This document shows, in pieces, positions 34,288 through 36,294 of a stretch of DNA of 38,916 nt. The DNA comes from a virus, in the IMG/VR virus record IMGVR_UViG_3300045988_128868, positions 1 to 38,916 of that record, one strand, 5' to 3'. A program made the position numbers and the translations under genes. How positions within the stretch are numbered: position 1 is the stretch's first letter; every line of letters begins with the position of its first letter. The notes beneath the pieces were generated by a model. That model worked only from the letters and a program-made list of their open reading frames with translations. It had not been told where the DNA came from and ran no database searches.

Positions 34288-36294
34288 ATGAGTATAAGCT
34301 CAAACCTTGAGCGCATAAATGGCGCAAAAAGCACTCTGAAGACTTATCTGACCAATAACAATGTGGCGGTTCCGGACGGGACTAAAATCGATGCTATGGC
34401 AGAGCTGCTGGACGAAGTTAAAAGTGGCGTACTAACGGAGTCCTATACTTTTAATCAGCAACGTGCGGAAGTTATTAAGTATTTAACTGAAGTAACTTAC
34501 GACCCTGCCAACTATACTGTATCGCAAATACCTAATTATGTAACTGCTACAAGTTCAAACCGTCCTGTTGGGGTGGCAATTACAATTAAGGAAGCAGGTA
34601 CGCTGACTATAGTTGATGGTTACACGGGCAACAGCATCTCCAAACAAGTGAACGCCGGAACTATTACGGTTTACAACTGTACTCCGGGGTCAATTTCAAA
34701 ATTTGTCGTGCTAAACACCAACAATGCTATAGTCCAGCATGGGCTTATAAAACCTACTGGAACTTGTCGTATGATTTATATGACAAATGTTGATAATGTC
34801 CGAGACCTCGGTGGCTGGACGTGCGATGGAGGTACTGTGAAGTACGGCAAACTTTTCCGAGGCGGAGAGGTCTATGGCTTCTTAACCGAGGACGGAGCTG
34901 CACAGGCTCTTGATGTGCTTGGGATTGAAAAAGAGATAGATTTAAGATTTGACTCAGATTTAAATGGTAGAACTGAAAGTGGTTTTGGCAACTCAGTGGA
35001 TATGTTTCATGTTGACTTTACTTGGAATGATTTAAACTATCAAAAATCAAGTGGTAACATTAAAAAACTCTTTGACCCATTATTTGATTATGTAATCGCA
35101 GGACATCCCACATACTTCCATTGCTCTGCTGGAGCAGATAGAACTGGAGTTGTTGCTCTTCTCTGTGAAGCAGTGCTCGGTATGTCACAGTCAGATATGG
35201 ATAAAGAATATGAGTTAACTTGCTTTTATTCCGGCGTGGAAAATGACAATCAGGCGCGGCGAAGAAATGAGGCTATATGGACAAGAGAAATAAATATTAT
35301 TAACTCTTATTCAGGCACCACTTTTAGAGACAAAGCAGTTAATTATATGGTGTCATGTGGTATTACAATTGAGAAAATTAATGCTTTTAGAGCAGCAATG
35401 ATTAATGGCACACCAGATATCCTAACAGCAGATATTAATACCTATACAGTGACAAAGACATTAACTAATATAACAACGGACAATAATGCAACATCCGCGA
35501 AACAATATCAGTCCTATATAGCGCAAATACTGCCTGACGATGGGAAGATAATCGAAAACATTAAAGTAACAATGGGTGGAATAGATATTACCGGAGCAGT
35601 ATTTGATGGTAATGAGACCATACTAAGACGATCAATAACAAAAAATCTTACACAATGTACAAGCAGTAATACACGCATATATGCAATTAGTGGACAGTCT
35701 TATGTAACTAGCCTAATTGCTAATGAAGGATATAACATTAATAGCGTAAGTATAACAATGGGGGGTGTGGATGTGTCCACATTTTATAAAGACGGGATTA
35801 TTTCTATCCCAGAAGTAACGGGAGATATTGTAATAACAGCAACTGCAATTACACAAGCTCCCTCTTATACAAATCAGATCCCAATTAGTACGGATTCCGC
35901 TGGCGCGATTTATAATAATATTGGGTATAAAGATGGGTATCGAATAAGCGATAGTGGTGTTGATGAGGAATATGGTCATAAGTCTGTTACAGGCTTTATA
36001 CCGATTAAAAAAGGAGACACCATTCGTATCAAAGGGATTTATAATAATGATGTAAATTCATGTCGAATATGCACTTATGACAACTCTAAAACTTTTAAAG
36101 CAGCACGTAACGGAGCAATATTTGCCACAACGGGGTCTTACTCTTTGCTGAATGATATTATGACATATGCCCCTAATGAGTATTTCGTAGATGATGCTAC
36201 TCGTTATTTTCGCTTTTCTTGTGACACCGGTGCGCACACAGGGGAAGAAGATGGTTCAAAGTTAATTATTACTATTAACGAGCCGATAGAATAA
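34288..36294 (+). CDS. Large tail fibre / receptor-binding protein with an embedded protein-tyrosine-phosphatase-like (Y_phosphatase3-type) domain
   Basis: 668 aa. The fibre-type N-module is followed by NVRDLGGW...LFRGGE...IDLR...FHCSAGADRTG (CX5R P-loop; Cys codon at 35122-35124) and KEYELT. Two ...TMGG(I/V)D(I/V)... repeat domains and a beta-rich C-domain follow. GC is about 35%, against about 60% or more for the upstream fibre genes. Confidence 0.8.
   Translation: MSISSNLERINGAKSTLKTYLTNNNVAVPDGTKIDAMAELLDEVKSGVLTESYTFNQQRAEVIKYLTEVTYDPANYTVSQIPNYVTATSSNRPVGVAITIKEAGTLTIVDGYTGNSISKQVNAGTITVYNCTPGSISKFVVLNTNNAIVQHGLIKPTGTCRMIYMTNVDNVRDLGGWTCDGGTVKYGKLFRGGEVYGFLTEDGAAQALDVLGIEKEIDLRFDSDLNGRTESGFGNSVDMFHVDFTWNDLNYQKSSGNIKKLFDPLFDYVIAGHPTYFHCSAGADRTGVVALLCEAVLGMSQSDMDKEYELTCFYSGVENDNQARRRNEAIWTREINIINSYSGTTFRDKAVNYMVSCGITIEKINAFRAAMINGTPDILTADINTYTVTKTLTNITTDNNATSAKQYQSYIAQILPDDGKIIENIKVTMGGIDITGAVFDGNETILRRSITKNLTQCTSSNTRIYAISGQSYVTSLIANEGYNINSVSITMGGVDVSTFYKDGIISIPEVTGDIVITATAITQAPSYTNQIPISTDSAGAIYNNIGYKDGYRISDSGVDEEYGHKSVTGFIPIKKGDTIRIKGIYNNDVNSCRICTYDNSKTFKAARNGAIFATTGSYSLLNDIMTYAPNEYFVDDATRYFRFSCDTGAHTGEEDGSKLIITINEPIE

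Follow-up and report, generated by a model that had tools for sequence, protein, structure and literature searches.

Why should the last tail-fibre gene of a gut prophage carry the active site of a tyrosine phosphatase? The question is raised by IMG/VR virus record IMGVR_UViG_3300045988_128868, whose positions 1 to 38,916 were analysed as a whole (38,916 nucleotides, nt; hereafter the window), and in particular by the gene that closes its tail module and encodes a protein of 668 amino acids (aa). As judged from its gene content and from public contigs the window is an integrated temperate siphovirus-type prophage of the gut, and this last tail-fibre gene contains an intact cysteine phosphatase domain, of protein tyrosine phosphatase (PTP) type; we call it the PTP fibre gene. 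The domain has the PTP fold, its catalytic motif is complete and conserved, the gene has its place in the tail module, and it has undergone modular exchange. Our preferred reading, to which we give even odds, is that a temperate siphovirus-type phage of gut Clostridia bears the product on its virion, as a tail fibre or receptor-binding protein with enzymatic activity. Phages with fibres of this family, which is spread over gut and rumen phages, probably use against the host surface a kind of enzyme that has not yet been described on tails.

The open reading frame (ORF) of the PTP fibre ends at 36294 on the plus strand and begins with a TTG at 34282 or an ATG at 34288. The latter gives 668 aa and is also the start chosen by public gene calls, so that the ORF 34288-36294 of an initial annotation, made from the sequence alone, is confirmed by the ORF list and by these calls. 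An AlphaFold prediction with 48 close homologues reached a predicted local distance difference test score (pLDDT) of 56 and gave nothing significant in Foldseek; 110 distant homologues from a domain-profile search were added, and the resulting alignment of 145 sequences yielded the final model of the 668-aa protein, with a pLDDT of 88.5 and a predicted template modelling score (pTM) of 0.72. This model runs from a helical hairpin through an FN3-like beta domain and the PTP domain to a pair of immunoglobulin (Ig)-like repeats and a C-terminal beta-sandwich:

34288..34431 (+), residues 1-48: N-terminal helical hairpin, putative tail-tip attachment adaptor (helices predicted at 3-23 and 31-45, with lower confidence)
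34432..34767 (+), residues ~49-160: FN3-like beta-sandwich (strands within 51-157, pLDDT >90), conserved along with the PTP domain
34768..35421 (+), residues 161-378: PTP-fold catalytic domain of the Y_phosphatase3 type (Pfam, PDB profile search, Foldseek, conservation)
35119..35148 (+): P-loop HCSAGADRTG, read from the translation, with Cys279, Asp284 and Arg285
35422..35871 (+), residues about 379-452 and 453-528: tandem pair of Ig-like beta domains with the motif TMGG(I/V)D(I/V) (internal repeat and model)
35872..36291 (+), residues about 529-668: C-terminal beta-sandwich (predicted all-beta, pLDDT mostly in the 80s)

The Y_phosphatase3-type fold had been proposed from a few motifs, and Pfam, the confident model and structural matches now agree on it. 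A Pfam search of the 668-aa protein assigned residues 165-332 to PF13350 (Y_phosphatase3) with an E-value of 1.5e-23 and 84.5 bits (cut-off 22.2), the last ~50 positions of that model being unmatched, and otherwise returned only a weak match to PF00102 (19.4 bits, under its cut-off). When the domain was used in a profile search of the PDB, the two top matches were 8dhi (1.5e-17) and PtpB (2.5e-10). Foldseek against the PDB found the same two structures, the Clostridioides difficile PTP 8DHI (E 2.4e-9, TM-score on the target 0.62) and Mycobacterium tuberculosis PtpB 1ywf (E 1.4e-8, TM-score 0.64), followed by laforin, poxvirus VH1 and other dual-specificity phosphatases.

Within the P-loop Cys279 is the nucleophile and Arg285 the phosphate-binding residue, and Asp284 aligns with PtpB Asp165. 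The CX5R site of the initial annotation is intact, although its numbering (C281, R287) counts from the TTG and becomes Cys279 and Arg285 in the 668-aa form. According to a review of PtpB, catalysis there cannot do without Asp165, and substrate specificity is modulated by Lys164 (PMC13275282); the phage protein retains the aspartate as Asp284 and has Ala283 at the position of the lysine. Across the 145 homologues, which extend to ~30% identity, the P-loop histidine is present in 100% and the cysteine, aspartate, arginine and threonine in 99% each, with His278, Cys279, Gly282, Asp284, Arg285 and Thr286 each conserved at 99-100%; the NxRDLGGW motif, Tyr186-Gly187, Arg191, Leu219-Arg220, Lys306 and Glu309 are equally conserved in this alignment. 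Conservation of the Cys and Arg among homologues, on which the earlier interpretation had been made to depend, is what we find: clear losses number two among 147 cluster representatives, namely P0383 (Cys to Gly) and P0352 (Arg to Lys).

The domains around the catalytic one can be described as follows. The FN3-like domain has a VxxYLxxVxYDPxDY motif, P93 and P133, all conserved also in cellular homologues, and the homologue P0205 matches Pfam fn3 at this position. The TMGG(I/V)D(I/V) repeats and the beta-rich C-terminal domain had both been noticed before. The repeats are genuine: aligned with each other, residues 385-462 and 463-535 score 76 (shuffled sequences 26.7 +/- 5.2, 0/2000 reaching the score). 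Both copies are predicted as beta, and residues ~535-668 are likewise predicted all-beta. In the model this C-terminal beta-sandwich makes a putative distal receptor- or carbohydrate-binding head; Foldseek gave it weak matches to CBM32-containing proteins only. At the other end, the first 50 residues resemble those of the preceding 293-aa fibre, as had been claimed: the Smith-Waterman score is 46 (shuffled sequences 21.8 +/- 4.4, 0/2000; z about 5.4). The likeness is real but modest, and plain BLASTP reports no N-terminal likeness between the two fibres. The PTP fibre protein has no signal peptide.

The family is very large. An exhaustive search of 1.84 billion cluster representatives gave 9784 matches with a threshold of E <= 1e-3; at E <= 1e-10 the number is 4053, and at E <= 1e-30 it is 528, counted as clusters at 50% identity. 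Matches in genome collections come mostly from metagenome-assembled genomes of Oscillospiraceae, Ruminococcus and other Clostridia from the human gut and ruminants, and relatives in nr and BFVD, from gut viromes, bear the automatic label 'tyrosine phosphatase family protein'. The protein is therefore not a one-off. A literature search gave no functional study of the family. The best 147 relatives are mostly 500-800 aa long and begin with recurrent, mutually unrelated fibre-type N-termini (e.g. MAKKLYEE..IA.AIR.KNG or MSI.SEI.RI.NNI), and at least six unrelated types of N-terminal adaptor stand on the common core among the homologues. Short phage-type relatives of ~330-390 aa consist of adaptor, beta domain and PTP domain only, so that in these the PTP unit is the distal end. 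Compared with the window protein, 47 full-length homologues show the following mean identities by segment:

N-terminal adaptor: 17%
FN3-like domain: 64%
PTP domain: 84%, the best-conserved segment
Ig-like repeat 1: 70%
Ig-like repeat 2: 80%
C-terminal domain: 40%, bimodal, with values of either 84-92% or about 25%

The bimodal distribution in the last segment indicates domain swapping. On the alignments, this identity mosaic is that expected of a receptor-binding protein in which the enzyme is the constrained core.

A sudden fall in guanine-plus-cytosine (GC) content at the start of the gene had been reported and taken as a sign of a freshly acquired module. The fall exists, and it sets in where the gene starts, but it was overstated: the PTP fibre gene has 38.9% GC (31% at third codon positions, GC3) next to tail and lysin genes with 51-54% (GC3 56-61%), and the highest upstream 100-nt window reaches 60%. 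The step is one of 51-54 to 38.9% and not of 67 to 35%. What was exchanged could be delimited by blastn:

34434..36281 (+): exchanged low-GC cassette, i.e. the gene body minus the adaptor

Over these 1848 nt the window is 85.3% identical to the corresponding gene of L040/L041, and the flanks show no similarity; the match begins at about codon 49, just past the adaptor, and stops 13 nt short of the stop codon. In L040, a phage of 109 kb, the PTP gene has 36% GC and its flanks about 40%, and in most other genomes the GC of the homologue follows that of its flanks. From these comparisons, the low-GC island is best explained if phages of differing GC traded the body of the gene while the resident adaptor was kept. 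Modular replacement, as initially proposed, is thus supported by the nucleotide identity of the body with a low-GC phage gene and by the boundary at the adaptor, whereas 'freshly acquired' does not fit, since an identity of 85% makes the event not especially recent. Elsewhere in the window the GC also falls to 38-41%, with about 50% in the surroundings, in two more islands: 13501-14500, which follows the primase gene, and 21001-21500, where the minor head protein gene ends.

In what genetic company does the gene stand? In the window it closes the tail module, in which the tape measure gene, the Dit-like and Tal-like genes and a pair of fibre genes precede it; it starts 15 nt past the end of the 293-aa fibre gene on the same strand, and the module is bounded by the lysis cassette, a phrog_1863 gene lying between the PTP fibre gene and the holin gene. 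The window also has a replication module and encodes a large terminase, a portal, a major capsid protein and a major tail protein. The features annotated in the window are:

178-1221 (-): integrase
3906-4676 (-): Abi_alpha (abortive infection) protein, 256 aa (Pfam, E 2.8e-48)
26434-29202 (+): tape measure protein, in the tail module upstream of the Tal-like gene
29245-29850 (-): 201-aa ORF between the tape measure and Dit-like genes, called as the same gene in public contigs
29921-30316: Dit-like gene, upstream of the Tal-like gene
30321-32516 (+): Tal-like tail-tip protein (phrog_6616 'tail protein', E 8.9e-181)
32738-33379 (+): first of the two small fibre-like genes, 213 aa when read from its first ATG (ORF list, public gene call, weak phrog_10485 match)
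33392-34273 (+): preceding fibre gene, 293 aa (phrog_13589, which has no annotated function, as its sole family match; N-terminal likeness to the PTP fibre)
34288-36294 (+): PTP fibre gene, 668 aa, stop codon included (ORF list, public gene calls)
36896-38168 (+): lysis cassette bounding the tail module, holin and lysin
36896-37243 (+): holin (phrog_608, E 7e-19; Phage_holin_6_1 in public gene calls)
37230-38168 (+): NlpC/P60-like lysin (weak NLPC_P60 match of 21 bits, under the cut-off)
38165-38497 (+): DUF4406 protein, 110 aa, after the lysin and just within the prophage end

The exact 668-aa protein is found on at least six contigs, and the prophage recurs across several samples. Public contigs with the identical protein run on past the lysis cassette into host genes for a major facilitator superfamily (MFS) transporter and a metallo-beta-lactamase-fold (Lactamase_B) protein, flanks which the longer contigs L049 and L051 display; the element is therefore integrated. 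No tRNA genes were found in the window, and a promoter and terminator scan around the PTP fibre gene gave nothing over background. The Tal-like protein is likely the docking platform for the fibres.

Some of these genes have features of their own. The 293-aa fibre contains three copies of an ~18-residue motif, SYT(I/V)P(A/D)G(Y/I)HNG(S/K)G(T/A)V. The C-terminal half of the lysin shows two apparently alike repeats of ~60 aa, each ending in ...ISSWV, which may be an undescribed wall-binding repeat. The 201-aa ORF at 29245-29850 has weak Pfam hints only (Rv1352-like, pullulanase X25) and could be an inverted moron within the tail module. The Abi_alpha gene lies near the integrase, inside a stretch of 38-40% GC (3501-5000), and is probably a defence gene carried by the prophage.

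Three unrelated phage backgrounds likewise have the gene directly downstream of tail-fibre genes. In L042, a prophage with an integrase, the order is a fibre-like gene, a 650-aa SGNH/GDSL fibre (phrog_5240), the PTP protein, a holin and a CHAP+NAGPA lysin; no sequence similarity was detected between the PTP fibre and the adjoining SGNH fibre. In L046, a prophage in a 195-kb contig with cotJ-type spore-coat genes, the order is a tape measure, a Tal-like protein (phrog_6616), a collagen-like tail fibre, the PTP protein, an Amidase_2 lysin and a holin; the fibre gene there ends right at the start of the PTP gene or overlaps it. In L040, a 109-kb contig with NrdD, PhoH and ClpP, fibre-type genes (phrog_6468, phrog_9525) precede the PTP protein, and the amidase lysin is ~6 kb away. 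As far as gene order tells, the PTP gene associates with fibre genes and not with the lysis cassette as such. The placement of the protein as a fibre or receptor-binding protein and not a cytoplasmic enzyme, as first suggested, is upheld by synteny in four unrelated backgrounds, by the swappable adaptor and by the variable C-terminal domain. The endolysin of L042 (12934-14451, +) joins a CHAP domain with a NAGPA (phosphodiester glycosidase) domain, which hints that sugar-1-phosphate diester links matter in the walls of these hosts and bears on the possible substrate of the PTP fibre.

How might such a protein work? Fibres are expected to be trimeric. The N-terminal helical hairpin would dock the protein on the tail tip, probably beside the 293-aa fibre with its similar N-terminus; tail attachment is supported by the swappable adaptor, by the likeness to the neighbouring fibre and by a recombination boundary exactly at the junction of adaptor and body. 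That boundary, together with at least two classes of C-terminal domain on a common core, also speaks for fibre status. The FN3-like domain and the PtpB-like Cys-phosphatase domain would form one conserved catalytic unit, which the Ig-like repeats and the exchangeable C-terminal beta-sandwich would present to the host surface, where they probably bind a glycan. At host contact Cys279 would attack a phosphate ester of a cell-envelope polymer to form a phospho-cysteine intermediate, with Arg285 binding the phosphate, Asp284 essential by analogy with PtpB Asp165, and Thr286 next to the arginine. Candidate substrates are a phosphorylated wall polysaccharide and a teichoic-acid-type polymer or its decoration. 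The receptor would either be unmasked or processed, leading to exposure and commitment, or be destroyed so that virions detach; such processing of a receptor polymer we infer by analogy with tail-module glycerophosphodiester phosphodiesterase (GDPD) domains and SGNH fibres, and incorporation into the virion, catalytic activity, an extracellular substrate and a benefit to the phage are parts of the same inference.

PTP-fold enzymes hydrolyse phosphomonoesters such as phosphotyrosine, phosphoinositides and glucan phosphate (laforin, SEX4), as well as phosphoanhydrides (RNA triphosphatases, Siw14). Removal of a phosphomonoester or an anhydride-type cleavage is accordingly the more likely reaction here; a phosphodiester depolymerase, as the initial annotation had considered, we rate as less likely because PTP-fold enzymes are not known to hydrolyse diesters. 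PtpB itself is a secreted enzyme working outside the producing cell (PMC13275282). Four BFVD proteins (A0A8S5M8I3, A0A8S5PNL8, A0A5H2QTU7, A0A8S5RAI3), tail-type proteins of gut viromes annotated as calcineurin-like/metallophosphatase and as SGNH/GDSL, have a domain of ~140-250 residues in common with the model. These structural matches presumably concern the non-PTP parts, the output being without alignment coordinates, and by the model one non-catalytic scaffold may carry several esterase or phosphoesterase heads.

Several observations weigh against an active virion enzyme. The N-terminal likeness to the neighbouring fibre is modest, and sharing of an adaptor between the PTP gene and its neighbours, sought in other loci, was seen only in copies of the window prophage. 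The 668-aa protein matches no PHROG tail-fibre family and none in NCBIfam. INPHARED holds no close homologue in a cultured phage, the best matches being 25-32% identical and mostly from unannotated gut-virome contigs; a tblastn search of INPHARED with residues 383-668 gave two weak, unannotated virome matches only. The general acid of PtpB is presumably Asp82, whose loop would correspond to residues 236-250 of the phage protein. In this loop Asp or Glu occurs at any one position in only ~40% of the homologues, and no WPD- or FPD-type general-acid Asp is conserved, which makes it uncertain how efficiently alkyl or sugar phosphates would be turned over. Other candidates for the acid are Asp173, Glu309 and Asp303/305. 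We further know of no PTP-fold enzyme that cuts phosphodiesters, and to our knowledge phosphomonoesters are uncommon on Gram-positive surfaces, which leaves no obvious substrate.

If the fibre context is accepted as established, the domain might nevertheless only bind, as a lectin-like pocket for a phosphorylated surface glycan or teichoic acid receptor that carries out no turnover and so resembles a substrate-trapping pseudophosphatase. The unconserved general-acid loop would suit such a role, as would the few members that have lost Cys or Arg (the Cys to Gly and Arg to Lys cases named above), but these losses are a handful, Cys, Arg, the P-loop Asp and Thr stand in 99% of 145 divergent homologues, and pure binding would demand neither the nucleophile nor the Thr, which in PTPs generally supports hydrolysis of the thiophosphate intermediate. 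We consider this unlikely, and slightly more so that the protein is a non-virion auxiliary enzyme of lysis and release, produced late, leaving through the holin lesion and stripping phosphate-containing wall polymers to the aid of the endolysin or to block re-adsorption to debris. The gene does lie immediately upstream of lysis genes in the window, L042 and L046, its product has no signal peptide, and the NAGPA domain of the L042 lysin suggests that wall phosphoesters matter in these hosts. In L040, however, it stands among fibre-type genes ~6 kb from the amidase lysin, and a swappable adaptor, likeness to a neighbouring fibre and a breakpoint at the adaptor are hallmarks of tail attachment for which a soluble enzyme has no need.

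The lack of a signal peptide would equally suit a phosphatase with cytoplasmic phosphotyrosine or phospholipid targets, acting after ejection or during late expression, possibly on capsule synthesis controlled by BY-kinases or on phosphorylation-based defence; PtpB, the closest characterised relative, acts on phosphoproteins and phosphoinositides (PMC13275282). The 668-aa protein, however, is beta-rich and multi-domain, its Ig-like repeats being followed by a distal domain that varies, as suits a fibre that binds a surface; the nearest cellular relatives are mainly exported, and the Lys that modulates PtpB specificity is Ala in the phage protein. Siphovirus fibres, moreover, are not known to be ejected into the cell, and we hold an intracellular role to be improbable. 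A lysogenic-conversion moron, that is low-GC cargo expressed from the prophage to change the lysogen surface or the interaction with the animal host, is the least probable of all and in our view hardly credible: the low-GC island does close the late operon, which is where morons commonly sit, and the window has other low-GC islands, one with the Abi gene, but the low GC is accounted for by a swap whose other partner was a low-GC phage with a homologous fibre gene, gene GC tracks that of the flanks in most other genomes, neither promoter nor terminator signal rises over background, and the gene follows the preceding fibre gene after 15 nt on the same strand. Measured against nucleophile conservation, adaptor architecture or synteny, each of these four explanations fits less well than an enzymatically active fibre.

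The nearest known systems help to place the protein. With PtpB-type phosphatases (M. tuberculosis PtpB, PDB 1YWF/2OZ5; C. difficile PTP, 8DHI) it has the fold in common by sequence and predicted structure, as well as the NxRDLGG motif and the HCxxGxDRTG P-loop including the Asp essential in PtpB. These enzymes are single-domain, soluble proteins of ~240-300 aa, whereas the phage domain is embedded in a 668-aa fibre, with a co-conserved FN3-like domain before it and Ig-like and beta-sandwich domains after it; the phage protein also differs in the Ala for Lys164 and the unmatched end of PF13350, and no conserved FPD/WPD-like acid was found in it. GDPD domains are metal-dependent TIM barrels that cut phosphodiesters. 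Enterococcal phages have them in their tail modules and Lactobacillus phage Ld17 in its baseplate (PMC10194240), where they place a phosphoesterase on the adsorption apparatus, presumably against teichoic-acid-type polymers, by the same logic and in the same neighbourhood as the PTP fibre (PMC10194240). The PTP fibre has a different fold and chemistry, with a Cys nucleophile, and Pfam gave no GDPD (PF03009) match.

Laforin and SEX4 offer another parallel: in them a beta-sandwich module that binds glycan is joined to a Cys-based phosphatase, and the fusion can dephosphorylate a polysaccharide. Laforin 4RKK is among the Foldseek matches (E 1.3e-4), with a poor superposition (TM-score 0.30, root-mean-square deviation about 15 A). 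Both proteins are eukaryotic and of the dual-specificity phosphatase subfamily, in contrast to the phage protein, which is of the Y_phosphatase3 type, has no DSPc match and carries an FN3-like domain rather than a recognised carbohydrate-binding module; the resemblance is one of analogous architecture and not of membership. BT3783, the phosphatase of the yeast-mannan polysaccharide utilization locus of Bacteroides thetaiotaomicron, was considered as a PTP-fold glycan phosphatase and rejected, being Mg-dependent and likened to tyrosyl-DNA phosphodiesterase. Enzymatic receptor-binding proteins such as tailspike depolymerases and SGNH esterase fibres have the same modular design of anchor, enzymatic body and variable distal domain, with horizontal exchange at the anchor junction; the PTP fibre differs from them in the type of its catalytic domain. 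Catalysis on the tails of Gram-positive phages is known from peptidoglycan hydrolases, pectin-lyase-like depolymerases, esterases and GDPD phosphodiesterases. Our literature search found no description of a PTP-fold tail fibre. Enzymatic receptor-binding proteins as such are already known, and a PTP catalytic fold in that role is undescribed.

The unit is not confined to phages. The profile search also found proteins of ~364 aa with Bacteroidales-style signal peptides or lipoboxes (P-loop HCIWGADRTG), Clostridia relatives with signal peptides, a few of them with dockerin-like segments and two of them exported giants of >1700 aa with the FN3-plus-PTP unit at the C-terminus, and one cellular relative with a type-IV-pilin-like N-terminus (cellular FN3-plus-PTP examples are P0139, P0136, P0311, P0368, P0384, P0386 and P0176-P0240). 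Going by these export signals, the FN3-plus-PTP unit seems to be a predominantly extracytoplasmic enzyme in gut anaerobes. The contexts of two Bacteroidales homologues were housekeeping-like and gave no substrate clue. On the Clostridia contig L048 (region 8537-11005, +) the gene of P0125 (334 aa; cluster with 359 members) lies 4 nt downstream of an alpha-L-fucosidase/F5_F8_type_C gene, which suggests a glycan-degradation operon.

Enzymatic receptor-binding proteins set the host range of phages and are a source of depolymerases, diagnostics and engineered phages. Hundreds of gut and rumen phage lineages carry on their fibres a conserved and apparently active Cys-phosphatase, and this points to a receptor or barrier, bearing phosphate and so far unrecognised, in cell walls of the Oscillospiraceae and Ruminococcus type, whose surface chemistry is poorly known, and the PTP fibre would serve as an enzymatic probe for that structure. 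If its true substrate were a phosphodiester-linked polymer, this would be new chemistry for the PTP fold. Somewhat short of an even chance, in our estimate, is the wider proposal that these fibres are the first class of phage receptor-binding proteins with a Cys-based PTP-fold surface enzyme, acting on phosphate-containing wall glycopolymers of gut and rumen Clostridia, in which case the exported FN3-plus-PTP proteins of Clostridia and Bacteroidales would be unrecognised extracellular phosphoglycan phosphatases. Phage fibres would thereby be linked to a large set of uncharacterised exported PTP-fold proteins of gut bacteria.

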